Shown here in pieces: positions 1,073 to 6,197 of a stretch of DNA of 6,470 nt. The stretch covers positions 1 to 6,470 of IMG/VR virus record IMGVR_UViG_3300029720_000150. One strand, written 5' to 3'. The notes under the pieces were generated by a model that searched no databases, was not told where the DNA came from, and saw only the letters and a list, made by a program, of their open reading frames with translations. The position numbers and the translations under genes are program-made. The stretch's first letter is position 1. Each line of letters begins with the position of its first letter. Source of the stretch: a virus.

Positions 1073-1186
1073 ATTCGGCAGTGAACGGCACGACGTGCCC
1101 TGCCGCTTCTCATCTCAAAGTCCGCTTTTATTCGGCAGTGAACGGCACGAAGTGCCCTGCCGCTTCTTATCCCAAAGTCCTGCGTT
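1073..1186 (+). repeat. Two tandem 57-nt direct repeats, each containing a bulged hairpin CGGCAG-tgaac-GGCAC-ga(c/a)-GTGCC-CTGCCG
   Basis: Copy 1 is 1073-1129 and copy 2 is 1130-1186. The first 51 positions differ at 3 sites and the 3' tails diverge. Both stems (6 bp and 5 bp) are perfectly conserved. The only substitution inside the hairpin is in the 3-nt loop (gac versus gaa). Hand count for copy 1 is 32 G+C out of 57. Confidence 0.9.
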
Positions 1187-1220
1187 AGCCCACAATACCA
1201 TGAAAAACACTAGCCTTTTG

Positions 1221-1456
1221 CTTCTTTTGGGCAATGCCAAAAGAAGTGGGGTTTGGGGCAACGCCCCATAGACAGGAAACGCAGTTTCCGCTCCTCCCGC
1301 TTCCGGGTGACCGGAAGTAGGGTTATAGGGGCAAAGCCCCTAATCGCCTGTTATCATTAGTTATCATTAGTTATTGCCATACAGCAGGCAAATAGCCTGC
1401 CGAGTTATTATTCCTATAATAACGTATTAGAAAACGGTGTCTAATTTCCACCGTTT
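1221..1456 (+). other. GC-rich hairpin array (at least 8 stem-loops): candidate structured ncRNA or ssDNA cis-element (complementary-strand origin, packaging or integration site)
   Basis: Perfect stems read directly from the sequence are as follows. H1 1221-1246 (10 bp, loop GCAATG). H2 1254-1268 (6 bp, loop AAC). H3 1275-1289 (6 bp, loop GCA). H4 1300-1317 (7 bp, GTGA loop of GNRA type). H5 1326-1342 (7 bp, loop AAA). H6 1384-1400 (6 bp, loop AAATA). H7 1404-1423 (8 bp, loop TCCT). H8 1432-1456 (8 bp, 9-nt loop). Hand count of 1221-1340 gives 69 G+C out of 120, against about 35-42% in sampled coding stretches. No ORF of 60 aa or more lies on either strand. Confidence 0.6.
1350..1375. repeat. 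10-nt direct repeat GTTATCATTA, 2 copies plus a partial third (GTTATT); iteron-like
   Basis: Copies are at 1350-1359 and 1360-1369, with the partial copy at 1370-1375. They lie between hairpins H5 and H6. Confidence 0.8.
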
Positions 1457-1489
1457 CAGCAACCCCTAGTTTATCTACTGCTAAAGTGA

Positions 1490-1556
1490 CACCATTCCTT
1501 TGTCGCTTGCGAGGAACGTTCCTGTAGGTTCGTTCGTGCTAAACTTTTGAATGGTG
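1490..1556 (+). other. Long-range 8-bp helix (CACCATTC / GAATGGTG) enclosing the 12-nt perfect palindrome AGGAACGTTCCT
   Basis: 1490-1497 is the exact reverse complement of 1549-1556. The palindrome lies at 1512-1523. The element sits at the 3' edge of the structured block. Confidence 0.45.
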
Positions 1557-1656
1557 ATAATTTATGCACTTTAGTCTATATTGTAATATTAGAGTTTACA
1601 TTTCATGTGAAATGTTCTTAATATAAATAAAAATTCGTTAGCATAATGTCCCTTAT

Positions 1657-1688
1657 GTTGTAAATTCAAAAATATCTCTCTATATTTG
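1657..1688 (+). promoter_or_regulatory. Candidate Bacteroidota-type promoter (-33-like GTTG at 1657-1660; -7 TATATTTG at 1681-1688) for the 1741 ORF and downstream genes
   Basis: 1681-1688 is an exact TAnnTTTG match. A 3 of 4 match to TTTG lies 20 nt upstream. The site is in an AT-rich region about 50 nt before the next ATG. Confidence 0.4.
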
Positions 1689-2116: not shown

Positions 2117-2317
2117 ATGAATAAAGAAGTTATAAAGATTATTATTAAGGTGCTTATTTATGCTCTTGGATTGATAGGTACTTATTTTGGAGTATCAGCT
2201 ATGACTAGTTGTACTGTTCAGCGCAATTATGAGTCTAGTGGTCGTGGTACGGTTATTGTTTCCGATACTACTCATTTAGTTCATTCTGGTTCTTGGTTTT
2301 TTAAAAAAGTTCGGTGA
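2117..2317 (+). CDS. Small membrane-anchored protein or putative lipoprotein, 66 aa
   Basis: The N-terminus is MNKEVIK, followed by a hydrophobic span of about 21 residues (IIIKVLIYALGLIGTYFGVSA) and then M-T-S-C (Cys32), which resembles a lipobox. Codons are T-ending. The stop TGA (2315-2317) lies 2 nt before the rep ATG (2320), which suggests translational coupling. Confidence 0.65.
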   Translation: MNKEVIKIIIKVLIYALGLIGTYFGVSAMTSCTVQRNYESSGRGTVIVSDTTHLVHSGSWFFKKVR

Positions 2318-2319
2318 TT

Positions 2320-3807
2320 ATGAATAATACAACTCCTTGGATTTCTTGTTTTAAACCTGTTGGTATTAGAGATTGTTTTGGTCGTGTCCAAATGGTTGGT
2401 TGTGGTTCTTGTCCTGCTTGTCAAGAGCTTAAGCGTAATAGCTTGAGTAATCGTCTTGCTTTGGAAGAGCATAGAGCAAAATATTGCTCTTTTGTAACTT
2501 TGACTTATGACGAGGCTCATTTGCCCATTGTGGACGTTTCACCTTTGTTCTCTTCTTCTGATGGTGAGGTTGTTGATTTACTTCAAAATCATGATTTTAA
2601 TGAAGATTTCTCAACACCTTCTGTGGTTAATACTGAGGAGTTACGTAATAGTGTTATTTTATATAATAAACATCGTGCTTTTTATAAGGCTAATTATTCT
2701 GTGAATAGAAATGTTACTTATGAAGATAATCAAGTTGCGGTGCTTGTAAATAGGCATTTGCAGTTGTTCATTAAAAGATTTAGAAAATATGTCTCACAAA
2801 ATTACAATGAAAAGATACGTTACTACGCTGTTGGTGAATACGGAGTCCAGTCTTTGCGTCCGCATTGGCATATCTTATTTTTCTACTCATCGCCTCAGCT
2901 TGCAAGAGATTTTGAGGATGTCGTTCAGCTCGGATCATCATCCCGACCAATTCAGACCCCTGTTTTTCTTCGTTCACTCTGGAAGTTCGGTCACATTGAT
3001 TCTAAGCAGACTGACGGAAAAGCCTATTTTTACGTTTCATCGTATGTTAATAAGCCTTCTAATTTTCCCTATGTGCTTGAGATCCTTGCTCCACAACGTG
3101 CGTTTCACTCCAATTTCCTTGGAGAGATTTCTGAGAAAGAAGACATTAAAAAGTCTTTTCAAGACAGAGACTTTTCAAATCTCGGAAAAATTAATGTTAT
3201 CTCTTGGTCAGGCGACCAATATACTTACTCCGTTAGGCGGTCGCTTGTCGGTAGATTGTTACCGAGATATAGCTTCTCAGCTTGCGAGGATGACAGAATT
3301 ATATTTCGAAAACTTACGCTCTTTGCCGACAGTTTCGTCTTCAGAAAGTACGAGCAATTAGGTTCTGTTCTGAATTTAGCTTTGCATATTTTTAATGCTT
3401 GGTATTTTAAGAAGGACAATGAATTTGCTTCTCTGGCTTCGCTCTGTGCTTCTCAGTGCTTAGCTTGTTTGCATTCGGATTTGAAACTTTTATCTCCGCT
3501 TTGCTCTGTTCTTTACGCTTCTAAGCGTTTTGTTTCTGCTGCCGATTCTTTGGGTTTTGGTTTGCGTGATTATTATGATATTTACAAGTCTTATTATAAT
3601 TTTATTGAATATTCTAGACTTACGGATAATTTGTCTTTATGTCAGTTAGATCCACAATTTGCTTCTGCTTATTATGCTTCTGTTACTGATTTTGACACTT
3701 TGTCTTCTAGTATTGATTTTATTAATTGGTCTTGTTCTGTTAAAAATAAATTCCGTTCACGGATTAAACATAGACAGATAGCAGACCGTTATAAGTTTAA
3801 TATTTAA
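2320..3807 (+). CDS. Replication initiation protein VP4 (HUH endonuclease, phiX174 gene A family), 495 aa from ATG 2320 (the ORF track begins at GTG 2314)
   Basis: Motif 1 FVTLTYD is at 2491-2511. The HUH motif HWHILFF is at 2863-2883. The two-tyrosine motif 3 YVSSYVNK is at 3031-3054; compare phiX174 A protein YVAKYVNK. An N-terminal Cys cluster GCGSCPACQ is typical of microvirus VP4 proteins. Confidence 0.95.
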   Translation: MNNTTPWISCFKPVGIRDCFGRVQMVGCGSCPACQELKRNSLSNRLALEEHRAKYCSFVTLTYDEAHLPIVDVSPLFSSSDGEVVDLLQNHDFNEDFSTPSVVNTEELRNSVILYNKHRAFYKANYSVNRNVTYEDNQVAVLVNRHLQLFIKRFRKYVSQNYNEKIRYYAVGEYGVQSLRPHWHILFFYSSPQLARDFEDVVQLGSSSRPIQTPVFLRSLWKFGHIDSKQTDGKAYFYVSSYVNKPSNFPYVLEILAPQRAFHSNFLGEISEKEDIKKSFQDRDFSNLGKINVISWSGDQYTYSVRRSLVGRLLPRYSFSACEDDRIIFRKLTLFADSFVFRKYEQLGSVLNLALHIFNAWYFKKDNEFASLASLCASQCLACLHSDLKLLSPLCSVLYASKRFVSAADSLGFGLRDYYDIYKSYYNFIEYSRLTDNLSLCQLDPQFASAYYASVTDFDTLSSSIDFINWSCSVKNKFRSRIKHRQIADRYKFNI

Positions 3808-3819
3808 ATTTTATTTTTT

Positions 3820-5754
3820 ATGGCAAATCGTTCTAATGTTATGGGTTTACACGGCCTTAAAAATAAGCCGTCTAGAAACTCTTTTGATGTTTCTGCCCGA
3901 AATCTTTTTACCGCTAAAATCGGTGAACTCTTGCCTTGTGCCGTTTATGAAATGAACCCTGGTGATTCTATTCGTATTGACGCAAGTTATTTTACTCGTA
4001 CTGCTCCATTGCAGACTGCAGCATTCACTCGTCTTCGTGAGAATGTTCAGTTCTTTTTTGTGCCTTATTCTCAGCTTTGGAAGTATTTTAATACTCAAGT
4101 TTTGAATATGAGTACTAGTGCTTCTGGACAAGATGTTTCTCGTATCGCTACTTCCCCTTTTTCTAATGAAAAAGTTTCTACGGGTATGCCTTATGTTTCT
4201 TATTTTGCTTTGCATAGGTATTTATTTAACATGGGTCAGGCTGCTAATAATCAGTTAGGTACGGATTTCGAAGATAATTTCGCTAATTCTGTTTTTGATA
4301 ATAATGGCGAATTCCGTTGGGCTGCTTCTTCTAAGTTGCTTCAGTTGTTAGGTTATGGTCGTTTTGATTATCAGAATATGTCACCTGCTAATTTTGATCC
4401 TGTTACTGTTACTGGTATGTCACATCTTCCTAATGTGTCTATTTTCCGTTTGCTTGCTTACCAAAAAATTTGTAACGATCATTATCAGTTCCGTCAGTGG
4501 CAGGGATATGATGCATCTTTGTGTAATGTTGATTATGTAAAACCGTCTGGTTCGATGGATTTATCTCCTCAGCTTGATCAGATAAACTTTAGTACTGGCG
4601 AAAATGCTAACAGATTGAATTTTTTGGATTTGCGTTTTAGTAATCTTCCTTTAGATTATCTTAACGGTGTTCTTCCTACTGCTCAGTTTGGTTCTGAGAG
4701 TGTTGTTTCTATAGGTTCTGACCTTAACTCTCTTGATGGTGATTTGCTTCCTAATACTGAAGCTCACGCTAGTTCTGGTGGTTTAGTTGTTCGTCGTTAT
4801 AATAATAATAATGGTCAATGGCAAGATCGTATTCAAATCGGTGAGCTTACGCCGATTCCTAGTGATACTCATCTTGAGGCTTTTTACAGAGATCAATCGT
4901 CTGATAGAGATGTTAATTTTACTTTTGATATCTCAAACGCTTCTTTCTCTGGTGCTGTTTCTATTGCTGCTCTTCGTCAGGCTTATGCAGCTCAGAAGTA
5001 TAAGGAGATTCAGTTAGCTAATGATGTGGATTTTGTTAGTCAGATTGAAGCACATTTTGGTGTTAAGCCTAAGCATGCTGATGATACATCTTATTTTATT
5101 GGTGGTTCGTCTTCTATGATTGATATTAATCCTATTGTCAATCAGAATTTGTCTGGTGATGCGCAAGCTAATTATAAAGCTTCTCCTATTGGCAATGGTT
5201 CTTCAAAGATTAAGTTTACTGCTGATACTTATGGTGTTGTTATGGGTATTTATCGTTGTACCCCTGTACTTGATTATGCTCATATTGGTATTGATAGAAC
5301 TCTTTGTAAGACTGATGCGTCTGATTTCGTTATTCCAGAGATGGATAGTATTGGTATGCAGCAAAATTATCTTTTTGAAGTTCAAGCTCCATCTTTTAAT
5401 TCAGTAAATCATGGTTTTGTTGATGATGAAAATTTTGCTCAGTCTTATGGATACGCTCCTCGTTACTCTGAGTATAAAACTAATTATGACAAGTATAATG
5501 GTGATTTTTGTTTCACTCTTGATTCTTGGGTTACCGGTCTTCCTGCTAATATGATTGATGAGATTTGTCGTCACAATCTTTCATCTATGCAGATTGCACC
5601 AGAGCTTTTTAATTGTCGTCCGTCACTTTGTAATAGTATTTTTGTAAATCAAAATAACTATTTGGTTTCTGATGATAAACTTTATGTAGGTATGGTTAAT
5701 ATGGCTTATGTTACTCGTAACTTGAGTCGTTACGGACTTCCTTATTCTAACTAA
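3820..5754 (+). CDS. Major capsid protein VP1 (Microviridae F-protein family), 644 aa
   Basis: The N-terminal region is ...SRNSFDVS...LFTAKIGELLPCAVYEMNPGDSIRIDASYFTRTAPLQTAAFTRLRENVQFFFVPYSQLW. The C-terminal region contains ...GYAPRYSEYKT.... Both are characteristic of microvirus capsid jelly-roll proteins. It is the largest ORF, with strong T-ending codon bias. Confidence 0.95.
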   Translation: MANRSNVMGLHGLKNKPSRNSFDVSARNLFTAKIGELLPCAVYEMNPGDSIRIDASYFTRTAPLQTAAFTRLRENVQFFFVPYSQLWKYFNTQVLNMSTSASGQDVSRIATSPFSNEKVSTGMPYVSYFALHRYLFNMGQAANNQLGTDFEDNFANSVFDNNGEFRWAASSKLLQLLGYGRFDYQNMSPANFDPVTVTGMSHLPNVSIFRLLAYQKICNDHYQFRQWQGYDASLCNVDYVKPSGSMDLSPQLDQINFSTGENANRLNFLDLRFSNLPLDYLNGVLPTAQFGSESVVSIGSDLNSLDGDLLPNTEAHASSGGLVVRRYNNNNGQWQDRIQIGELTPIPSDTHLEAFYRDQSSDRDVNFTFDISNASFSGAVSIAALRQAYAAQKYKEIQLANDVDFVSQIEAHFGVKPKHADDTSYFIGGSSSMIDINPIVNQNLSGDAQANYKASPIGNGSSKIKFTADTYGVVMGIYRCTPVLDYAHIGIDRTLCKTDASDFVIPEMDSIGMQQNYLFEVQAPSFNSVNHGFVDDENFAQSYGYAPRYSEYKTNYDKYNGDFCFTLDSWVTGLPANMIDEICRHNLSSMQIAPELFNCRPSLCNSIFVNQNNYLVSDDKLYVGMVNMAYVTRNLSRYGLPYSN

Positions 5755-5768
5755 TTAATTTATATATT

Positions 5769-6197
5769 ATGAGTATTAGAAATTATAAAACTAAGTGTTA
5801 TATACCTCCTATTGGTGAGGATTTGCAGCACGACATTTGTGAAGAAGGTATTTCTTTTCATTCAGATATTACACTTCTTAGTCGTCTTTCTGATATGCGT
5901 CTTTCTCAGTCGCTTATGGATGGTATTTTATCTCGTTTCTCTCAGGTCAAGGATACTATGCCTCAAGAGCTTTCCGAGAAGTTTGCTTCTTTGGATGATT
6001 TCAAGAAGATGGATTTCACCGATTCACGATATTTGCAATCTCTTTCGGATAAGAAGTCTGCTTTGTCTTCATTCATTGATGATTATGATAAGAAACTTTC
6101 TGAAATGAATGATTCTCTGGAAAAGTCTAAACTTGCTTCTGCTCGTAAGAATTTGGATAATTATATTTTGTCTATGTTCTCTGATGAGGATAAATAA
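5769..6197 (+). CDS. Hypothetical acidic, predicted helical protein, 142 aa; possible internal scaffolding (VP3-like) protein
   Basis: This is a clean ORF 14 nt after VP1, lying between VP1 and VP2. It is rich in Asp, Glu, Ser and Leu and its size resembles gokushovirus VP3. The functional call rests only on position, size and composition. Confidence 0.75.
   Translation: MSIRNYKTKCYIPPIGEDLQHDICEEGISFHSDITLLSRLSDMRLSQSLMDGILSRFSQVKDTMPQELSEKFASLDDFKKMDFTDSRYLQSLSDKKSALSSFIDDYDKKLSEMNDSLEKSKLASARKNLDNYILSMFSDEDK

Follow-up and report, generated by a model that had tools for sequence, protein, structure and literature searches.

A covarying hairpin array in the non-coding region of a temperate Prevotella microvirus as a candidate complementary-strand origin

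Introduction

In phiX174-like, G4 and Ff phages, conversion of the single strand to the replicative form is accomplished by host proteins only, and in the Ff phages (M13, f1, fd) one intergenic region combines the minus-strand origin with the plus-strand origin and other cis signals. Microviruses of Bacteroidota are among the commonest single-stranded DNA (ssDNA) phages of the human and animal gut, and we know of no cis-acting replication signal that has been defined for them. Here, we describe an array of hairpins at positions 1221-1456 of the IMG/VR virus record IMGVR_UViG_3300029720_000150. The 6,470 nucleotides analysed (hereafter, the window) comprise the complete circular genome of a microvirus of 6,381 nt plus an 89-nt terminal overlap. 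The phage is a temperate member of the Microviridae from a lineage infecting gut Prevotella, and its array is proposed as a candidate signal for complementary-strand synthesis.

At the complementary-strand origin of G4 (G4ori), regions of ~30 nt free of SSB (the protein that binds single-stranded DNA) flank three stem-loops and are bound by primase; a CTG located 3' of these stem-loops is where priming begins (PMC6783573). DNA mini-hairpins of the types GCGNNAGC and GCGNAGC, which are extraordinarily stable and resist nucleases, are reported for the complementary-strand origins of G4, St-1 and alpha3, for RSF1010 ssiA (as CCGAAGG) and for the hairpin promoters of N4; the corresponding RNA, r(GCGAAAGC), melts at 39 °C, which is far lower (PMC13037366). 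For very small microviruses, one or two conserved hairpins without an assigned function were predicted in a 2022 study (PMC9865509). Proviruses of Bacteroidetes microviruses possess a dif-like att site (Krupovic and Forterre 2011, PMC3091885), as is the case here. A description of the hairpins reported below was found neither in PMC3091885 nor in PMC7062461 nor in the full-text literature searched.

The window resembles the G4, St-1 and alpha3 origins in that stable stem-loops are clustered between genes on the strand that a microvirus packages, in its ~30-nt unpaired flanks (a likeness of geometry only), in the expected dependence on host proteins alone and in a mini-hairpin of the GCGNNAGC type, the octamer GCGTTAGC being identical to the St-1/alpha3 origin octamer (PMC13037366). 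It differs from them in that no sequence similarity was detected: a blastn search of 888-1740 against 50,697 phage records returned short blocks in six pig microviruses only. In contrast to the three hairpins of G4, 8 to at least 12 are present, the middle hairpins are interchangeable, no CTG is conserved on the 3' side, and the host belongs to the Bacteroidota. With the Ff phages the window has in common that one non-coding stretch, several hundred nucleotides in length, is packed with ssDNA hairpins; however, the Ff minus origin mimics a sigma-70 promoter, whereas the window's hairpins lack a conserved TTTG ... TAnnTTTG (43 loci), no sign of a packaging hairpin was seen in the window, and the virus family and the replication protein (Rep) are unrelated.

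Further likeness is found with the n' (PriA) site of phiX174, with ssiA and ssiB of RSF1010 and with sso elements, where ssDNA hairpins recruit the priming apparatus in an orientation- and host-specific manner. These are single hairpins of 40-150 nt, however, and they are likened to the window by description, not by sequence. In addition, the RepB' primase is plasmid-encoded, whereas a PHROG scan of the open reading frames (ORFs) of the window genome revealed no recognisable primase. Finally, the temperate Bacteroidales microviruses BMV1-7 (PMC3091885) share the absence of an integrase and a dif-like att with a duplicated core of 13-14 bp; that study contains neither hairpins nor an analysis of non-coding DNA, and the array of the window is separate from att, at a distance of 180-410 nt.

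Results

Perfect hairpins in the window

When stems of 6 bp or more and loops of 3-9 nt were required, nine perfect hairpins were detected within 1221-1456. Eight of them (H1-H8, Table 1) had been proposed in a sequence-only reading of the window and are all present as Watson-Crick stems, including the GGCAA apices pointed out there for H1, H2, H5 and H6; the ninth is an overlapping alternative at 1426-1445. In 2000 dinucleotide-preserving shuffles of this block, the mean number of hairpins was 0.40 and the maximum was four. Folding was better than in each of 200 shuffles, the z-score being -6.8 under RNA and -8.2 under DNA parameters. The structured block extends past 1221-1456, with nested hairpins at 1073-1180, the mini-hairpin at 1182-1189 and a long hairpin at 1482-1564.

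Relatives and anatomy of the element

Some of the blocks retrieved from the pig microviruses were 98% identical over ~54 nt, with the remainder of those genomes being unalignable. Exact-pattern searches were built on the frame common to these loci, consisting of an anchor sequence (ATGAAAAACACTAGCC), the H1 loop and the H5 flanks; stems, the NN positions of loops and gap lengths were no part of the patterns. The searches returned 53 loci in IMG/VR, ~40 of which are microviruses, and 89 loci in human-gut metagenome contigs. The scaffold was shared by more than 130 contigs of related gut microviruses and prophages of Prevotella, and the de-duplicated set contained 114 distinct core versions.

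On the + strand, the elements of the family are arranged 5' to 3' as follows. The mini-hairpin S-CG-NN-AG-S' is followed by an unpaired, G-poor stretch with ATGAAAAACACTAGCC and by H1 with its invariant apex. Next comes a middle section, for which at least five unrelated hairpin sets exist, the H2-H3-H4 set of the window being designated type A. H5, with the invariant flanks GGTTATAGGG(G) and (C)CCCTAATCGCC around a variable apex, precedes a run of 10-nt direct repeats, after which more hairpins, the last of them of the H8 type, lead to a second unpaired stretch made up of CYCTTGTYC, an AT-rich run and GTGACAC. The long hairpin, the perfect palindrome TTTCAYGTGAAA, the dif-like site and the early promoter complete the order.

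The anchor was exact in more than 130 loci, its CTA is nearly invariant, and its 13-mers are common to all 11 clusters into which the Rep proteins fall at 50% identity. The invariant loop of H1 across the family is GGGCAATGCC. In 100 of 111 distinct relatives, the mini-hairpin lies 10-13 nt upstream of the anchor, and its gap to H1, with a G content of 10%, measures 31-34 nt in 86 of 88 distinct sequences, a length that is held despite indels at several internal places. The second unpaired stretch after H8 is ~28-35 nt long; its pattern was present in 69 of 108 distinct non-coding regions, with the window having a CTAG variant, and the GACAC of this stretch opens the covarying long hairpin. 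H8 has an equivalent of unrelated stem sequence in the other types, which is always followed by the CYCTTGTYC-type tail. H6 is an insertion that is missing from the relatives L035, L048 and L069, and the position of H7 is occupied in relatives by a different palindrome, TCTTATATAAGA. Repeat runs similar to those of the window follow H5 in several relatives, and a set related to these 10-nt repeats is present at 1035-1060 of the window. The 57-nt repeat upstream of the mini-hairpin is single-copy in relatives; in the window, the second copy has the DNA triloop C-GAA-G as its apex.

Two contigs stand apart. In L199, a 17-kb IMG/VR contig, a variant of the element at 3500-3620 consists of an (AC)n-rich stretch ending in CACTAGCC and a hairpin of the H1 type, whose stem measures 17 bp and whose apex is again GGGCAATGCC. 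Except for L199, the 16-mer of the H1 apex was found outside microviruses in chance coding contexts only; the matches in 30-60-kb phages represented one coding sequence in many contigs, showed no extension of the hairpin and were taken as chance. The 11,666-nt IMG/VR contig L046 contains two different microvirus gene sets in tandem without an internal repeat, a capsid protein of 638 aa and a Rep of 511 aa being followed by another ORF of capsid size (576 aa). Either two prophages lie here in tandem, or the assembly is a chimera joined at the non-coding element that both sets share.

Compensatory changes

Across 38 distinct H1 stems, 98.4% of the cells were paired, 69 cells had changed on both sides, and 3 of 380 were G-T; this pairing and covariation score was reached by none of 500 shuffles, a count that is not to be read as a probability since the sequences are mutually related. 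The outer pair of the mini-hairpin was C-G in 54 and G-C in 27 of 81 distinct sequences and was never unpaired. Among eight type-A sequences, five pairs with double changes were found, which no shuffle reached, with the same restriction on the shuffle count.

The stems of H3 and H4 are invariant within type A and have compensated variants in other types. The H3 loop is GCA or GTA in relatives, and the type-E hairpin GAAAAC-GYA-GTTTTC reflects a compensatory change from G-C to A-T. H4 keeps TTCCG...CGGAA around loops of 7-9 nt in the other types, with its outer pair switching between C-G and G-C (CTTCCG/CGGAAG versus GTTCCG/CGGAAC). H5 has many distinct apex variants, most commonly T-GAA-A and T-GCA-A, and its genuine stems are almost all Watson-Crick, with two non-Watson-Crick cells and no G-T. 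H2 and H5 belong to one motif family, GGGGTT..GGGG-apex-CCCC, which bears out the suggestion that their flipped closing pair is a compensatory change between paralogues; in L098, both apices have changed together from C-AAC-G to T-GAA-A. A compensatory A-T to T-A change was seen for H8 in L035, L048 and L069, and the long hairpin at 1482-1564 has compensatory changes in the same three relatives. In the nested upstream hairpin, whose apex is GAA or GTA, GGCAG/CTGCC is replaced by GGTCG/CGACC, and GGCAC/GTGCC by GGTTC/GAACC or GGCTC/GAGCC. We conclude that the array structure is real and selected, given the excess of perfect hairpins over shuffles, the folding z-score under DNA parameters and the covariation, which was seen in H1, in H8, in the mini-hairpin, in the apices of H2 and H5 and in the nested hairpin upstream.

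Several other constructions of the block were discarded. The pairing of 1326-1331 with 1463-1468, from which a switch or pseudoknot had been considered, is not conserved, the relatives having no CCCC run. A G-quadruplex formed by the G-runs flanking H2 and H5 was dropped, as these runs are not conserved in type-B relatives. The ORFs 913-1188, 1095-1271 and 1115-1261(-) overlap the array region; none of the three has a PHROG family, and relatives differ by non-triplet indels and by swaps of whole modules, so the array was rejected as coding sequence.

Loop grammar and strand

All genes of the window run on the + strand, and the packaged strand of Microviridae is mRNA-sense, so the hairpins may be considered either as ssDNA or as RNA of the same strand. 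In the mini-hairpin, two Watson-Crick pairs enclose G-NN-A, in which NN is free and a pyrimidine occupies position 3 in 86 of 100 sequences; in a few relatives, the 7-nt forms GCGAAGC or GCGCAGC take its place. In 129 distinct non-coding regions, 86 distinct hairpins of the C-GNA-G/C-GNNA-G kind were counted on the + strand versus 12 of the reverse-complement kind, and with stems of at least 4 bp the numbers were 46 versus 2. The same GNA-type rule applies to H3 with its C-GCA-G, to the C-GAA-G of the second nested hairpin upstream and to those H5 apices that are most frequent.

The GTGA loop of H4 had been taken as a GNRA tetraloop favouring RNA; in each of the seven relatives it reads ATGA. 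Of 32 distinct C-GNNA-G hairpins, 10 had a purine at position 3, GNNA loops mostly having a pyrimidine there, and a conserved GNRA loop was found neither in H4 nor in the list of C-GNNA-G hairpins nor in the mini-hairpin. The ratio of G-T to A-C mismatches in all loosely defined hairpins (39 versus 24) was too noisy and was not used.

The promoter box TAnnTTTG (-7 box) is not conserved upstream of or within the array, its positions being scattered across 43 loci, and a promoter-mimic origin of the Ff type was rejected on this basis. No terminator-like site was found after the array; in relatives, strong hairpin-plus-T-run terminators close the late transcript before it. Rfam 15 covariance models gave no match to 888-1740 at E <= 10, and no tRNA or tmRNA genes were found. 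Together, the loop types and their strand asymmetry, the scarcity of G-T pairs, the lack of a conserved promoter or terminator and the negative Rfam result favour, on statistical grounds, a structure functioning as ssDNA in the packaged strand.

Exchange of the element between phages

Loci carrying the anchor and the H1 loop encode capsid proteins that are either 20-30% (26 loci) or 50-60% (53 loci) identical to that of the window, and in 87 of 93 loci their Rep is 24-40% identical. In L120, the whole 177-nt type-A array is 88% identical to the window's, as close as the arrays of the nearest relatives, but the capsid protein is 27% and Rep 24.5% identical. Neither the types of the middle array nor the repeats after H5 correspond with the Rep clusters, and the same 10-nt repeat sequence was found with Rep clusters 0, 1, 5, 7 and 8.

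The 13-mers common to at least six Rep clusters all lie in the non-coding region, except five that fall within the coding sequence of late genes, 2.9-4.3 kb downstream of the anchor; of these five, the first maps to the capsid gene of the window. A conserved nucleotide island inside the rep genes, as would be given by an internal origin of the phiX type, was not found among the 13-mers common to at least 6 of the 11 clusters. Phages that differ widely in their replication proteins exchange the element freely; the simplest explanation is that host proteins read it, which points to recognition by a host factor.

The H5 motif in other phages

The H5 motif is also present in small microviruses (4.2-4.7 kb, with 4.5-4.7 kb for those of rodents) that differ in gene order and derive from rodent faeces or IMG/VR, namely L264 (OM869498, 1985-2070), L265 (PQ006593, 2025-2095), L062 and L063. 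In these small carriers, which are without the anchor and H1, it lies in a short non-coding region after an H2-like hairpin or a long hairpin with a C-GCA-G apex; the rodent microvirus PQ006593 has the pair of H2 and H5.

Several copies of the motif were found in each of the 199-295-kb IMG/VR contigs L060, L065, L067 and L068, which represent jumbo phages, e.g., at 822-849 and 4342-4369 (- strand) of L060. The copies lie within hairpin-rich non-coding repeats of ~800 nt, antisense to the flanking genes, and have the form TGGGGTTATAGGGG-loop-CCCCTAATCGC, with GNA/GNNA loops on the same strand; one loop of the repeat alternates between GCTA and GTA among copies. The repeats had no Rfam match at E <= 0.1, and the jumbo phages had no GenBank relative at the DNA or protein level. 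By a rough estimate, a few chance matches to the H5 pattern are expected. However, as the matches in the jumbo phages exceed the pattern by ~5-6 nt and keep the hairpin, the motif appears to be genuinely shared with them.

Genome context and attachment site

The array lies in the single large non-coding region of the genome (888-1740, ~850 nt), between the pilot-protein gene and the early promoter. Its features are listed in Table 1 together with those of the surroundings. The GC content is 0.50-0.53 at 1101-1400 compared with ~0.36 genome-wide, and the GC skew is negative within the hairpin block. The top GenBank match of the capsid protein is only 40% identical, which shows that the lineage is poorly represented in GenBank.

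Table 1. Features of the hairpin block and its surroundings in the window.
Feature	Position	Strand	Description
57-nt tandem repeat	1073-1180	+	Nested hairpin per copy, CGGCAG-TGAA-CGGCAC-GAM-GTGCC-C-CTGCCG
Mini-hairpin GCGTTAGC	1182-1189	+	d(GC-GNNA-GC), 2-bp stem plus sheared G-A pair
Unpaired G-poor 31-nt stretch	1190-1220	+	Contains anchor ATGAAAAACACTAGCC at 1200-1215
H1	1221-1246	+	10 bp, loop GCAATG; invariant apex GG-GCAATG-CC
H2	1254-1268	+	6 bp, loop AAC
H2 with G-rich 5' flank	1247-1273	+	TGGGGTTTGGGG-apex-CCCCATA; paralogue of H5 motif
H3	1275-1289	+	GGAAAC-GCA-GTTTCC, 6 bp; C-GNA-G DNA triloop hairpin
H4	1300-1317	+	CTTCCGG-GTGA-CCGGAAG, 7 bp
H5 motif	1317-1348	+	GTAGGGTTATAGGGGC-AAA-GCCCCTAATCGCC; flanks invariant, apex variable
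H5 hairpin	1326-1342	+	7 bp, loop AAA
Four 10-nt direct repeats	1341-1380	+	TAATCGCCTG, TTATCATTAG, TTATCATTAG, TTATTGCCAT; begin in H5 3' flank
H6	1384-1400	+	GCAGGC-AAATA-GCCTGC, 6 bp
H7	1404-1423	+	AT-rich, 8 bp
H8	1432-1456	+	8 bp; AAACGGTG-TCTAATTTC-CACCGTTT
Second conserved unpaired stretch	1457-1493	+	CAGCAACCCCTAGTTTATCTACTGCTAAAGTGACACC; after H8
Perfect palindrome ACATTTCATGTGAAATGT	1598-1615		Context, outside array; between hairpin block and dif-like site
dif-like attP	1637-1663		GTTAGCATAA-TGTCCC-TTATGTTGTAA; context
-7 promoter box TATATTTG	1681-1688	+	Bacteroidota type, early genes; context
Two small ORFs	1741-2010 and 2117-2317	+	
Rep (VP4)	2314-3807	+	
Major capsid protein	3820-5754	+	
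142-aa ORF	5769-6197	+	
Pilot protein	6246 to 887, across junction	+	

The dif-like site is the sole zero-mismatch dif-like match in the window. Several of the metagenome matches lie in contigs of 20-128 kb, in which microvirus genes (tblastn) are flanked by bacterial genes. These prophages, which have no integrase gene, are located either between genes for an Na:Ala symporter and an alpha-galactosidase or after an efflux operon with AcrB-, HlyD- and OEP-type genes; the named relatives of the neighbouring alpha-galactosidase (83-84% identity) are from Prevotella. The prophages are bounded by a duplication of CATAACGTCCCTTA in L090 and L132 and of CCATAATACCGGTTA in L121, the duplicated core being 14 nt in L090 (870-905, 7085-7110) and 15 nt in L121 (5270-5290, 11825-11845). 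The junction core CATAAYGTCCCTTA corresponds to 1642-1655 of the window, downstream of the array. The array itself is intact inside the prophages, 180-410 nt from att on the XerC-arm side, and it was rejected as attP, including a folded attP of the CTX kind, since the junctions map to 1637-1663 and a single dif-like site is present.

The pattern of anchor and H1 matched two loci in a collection of 185,579 genomes of bacterial species, of which one is a microvirus contig binned with a metagenome-assembled genome of Lachnospiraceae and the other a chance match. Neither is a host repeat, and a repetitive extragenic palindrome of the host was discarded on this count for the anchor and H1.

The palindrome at 1598-1615, 13-mers of which are common to 9 of the 11 Rep clusters, may be an operator or factor-binding site for the early promoter or lysogeny. 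Boxes equivalent to TATATTTG are found upstream of the first ORF in L001, L002 and L004. Directly after the terminator of the pilot gene, an AT-rich inverted repeat with 23-nt arms (ATGCGTGCGTATTATTTATATAT / ATATATAGATTTTACGTACGCAT) occupies 940-986; it is kept in type-A relatives and has a GC-richer form in type B. In L002 (2560-3130) and L004 (60-340, minus strand), the non-coding region contains, upstream of the element, one or two ORFs of ~90 aa on the minus strand that have a Bacteroidota-type promoter of their own, and in the window only a remnant of that promoter region is left near 1010-1030.

Discussion

We favour a role in ssDNA priming because the DNA-type loops are specific to the packaged strand, G-T pairs are few, neither a promoter nor a terminator accompanies the array, the element is exchanged across Rep clusters, and the geometry is like that of G4ori. 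Comparison with relatives thereby sided, if indirectly, with the sequence-only reading as regards complementary-strand priming and went against its arguments for GNRA loops and RNA and for a switch or pseudoknot. Specifically, the array may be the core of a G4-like complementary-strand origin that acts in ssDNA, is unrelated to G4 in sequence and is far more elaborate, and we consider this to have roughly an even chance of being correct.

According to this proposal, circular ssDNA would enter the Prevotella cell and be coated by host SSB, while the very stable hairpins (mini-hairpin 1182-1189, H1-H5, H8) would stay folded and hold open one or two conserved unpaired stretches of ~30 nt (1190-1220, 1457-1484). 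A host priming enzyme would then recognise the invariant parts, namely the apex of H1, the irregular helix of H5 and the anchor in its unpaired state; a primase acting directly, as at G4ori, is the probable candidate, with RNA polymerase or a PriA primosome being less likely. A short RNA primer would be laid down, and DNA polymerase III would extend it. SSB exclusion, the acting enzyme, the primer start and the function itself are what we infer from the comparison. The block can be read as a stem-loop cluster (H1-H8) between two conserved single-stranded pads, of which 1190-1220 is proposed to be a landing pad free of SSB or a primer-template site, and 1457-1493 is a candidate for the viral-strand (Rep) nick region or the primer start.

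Several observations weigh against this proposal. Compared with every complementary-strand origin characterised so far, the array is much larger and shows more modularity; H6 is confined to the window genome, and the sequence of H7 is not conserved. No initiation trinucleotide is conserved 3' of the cluster, the CTG at 1476-1478 being specific to the window. The invariance of the letters in the anchor, the H1 loop and the H5 flanks is partly by construction, since they were used as search patterns, and the invariant anchor could be a nick site of Rep instead. The minus strand folds equally well (z = -7.5); the stems being perfect, folding energy is uninformative on the strand, and since a (+)-sense RNA has the same sequence, the assignment to DNA rests on the statistics of loops and wobble pairs.

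The region, or its invariant parts, might alternatively be the viral-strand (+) origin for Rep (VP4, an HUH endonuclease), which would bind the H5 flank and the 10-nt repeats and nick within the anchor (1200-1215) or the tail (1457-1493). We regard this as possible, if doubtful; the two kinds of origin could also share the block, as they do in the intergenic region of Ff phages. The iteron-like repeats with a 10-nt period beside a hairpin are reminiscent of plasmid and CRESS-virus origins, and the anchor is AT-rich, lies between GC-rich hairpins and is common to all 11 Rep clusters. The tail contains CTTG in most relatives, similar to CTTGATA, which we take to be the nick core of phiX174/pC194. 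That no 13-mer common to at least 6 of 11 clusters falls within rep genes also makes it probable that the (+) origin lies in the non-coding region. However, a cognate site should track Rep, whereas array and repeats swap freely between Rep clusters of less than 50% identity; the hairpin loops of 3-6 nt are variable and offer no conserved nick site; the H5 motif occurs in jumbo double-stranded DNA (dsDNA) contigs, where no microvirus-type Rep was seen in the loci read; and DNA mini-hairpins are tied to priming and ssDNA promoters, not to Rep nick sites (PMC13037366). Another reading is an RNA transcribed from the + strand, either a new class of structured non-coding RNA or an untranslated region with structure, that would serve regulation (e.g., of lysogeny) or counter-defence. 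It would agree with the strong covariation, with z = -6.8 under RNA parameters, with the GTGA loop of H4 in the window and with the occurrence of the H5 motif in a long non-coding repeat of a dsDNA jumbo phage. A TAnnTTTG box at 1058-1065 lies just upstream of the first nested hairpin in the window and two relatives, but it is not conserved family-wide, and neither a downstream terminator nor an Rfam family was found. In RNA families, G-U typically makes up several percent of the pairs, whereas here it accounts for 0.8%. In addition, GTGA is not conserved, the conserved tetraloops break the GNRA rule, a conserved hairpin with a 2-bp stem would be unstable as RNA, and the jumbo-phage motif is antisense to its flanking genes. 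We consider an RNA unlikely.

A different role at the DNA level, be it as an accessory sequence for Xer at the dif-like site, a signal for genome condensation or packaging, or a nuclease-resistant protective block, is less probable still. Plasmid Xer sites use accessory sequences of ~200 bp, which would suit the location of the array at 180-410 nt on the XerC-arm side of attP and its retention in prophages; such sequences act as duplex, however, and would leave the strand-specific loops and the covarying hairpins unexplained. The H2/H5 motifs are also found in small microviruses (where dif sites were not checked), and microvirus packaging is coupled to Rep and, in phiX174, needs no separate signal. 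A protective block would draw on the resistance of mini-hairpins to nucleases (PMC13037366). That the array is a passenger, i.e., a captured host palindrome or a chance cluster without phage function, is effectively refuted: the atypical GC content and the recent insertion of H6 might speak for it, but only two matches, neither of them a host repeat, were found in 185,579 species genomes, 0.4 hairpins were expected from shuffles, and across more than 130 microvirus loci the block keeps its position and shows compensatory changes.

A further suggestion, which is speculative and has a low probability in our judgement, is that the array represents a horizontally mobile, host-specific 'priming cassette' that is swapped as a unit by unrelated Prevotella microviruses because only host proteins read it, and that H5 (GGGGTTATAGGGG-apex-CCCCTAATCGCC) is a candidate binding site for a Bacteroidota replication or priming factor, a site also used, on the strand antisense to the genes, by the ~800-nt repeats of the jumbo dsDNA phages. 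If this were true, ssDNA phages and giant dsDNA phages of one host would converge on, or exchange, a single signal for initiation on single strands.

The element provides a concrete, sequence-defined candidate signal with mutational predictions for the mini-hairpin, the 31-34-nt gap, the H1 apex and the H5 flanks. For sequence data in general, the combination of GNA/GNNA versus GNRA loop grammar, the scarcity of G-T pairs and strand asymmetry can separate ssDNA from RNA structures. As it appears to be tied to the host rather than to the phage lineage, the element could mark the host range of uncultured microviruses, and it could serve in synthetic ssDNA vectors for Prevotella or Bacteroides.

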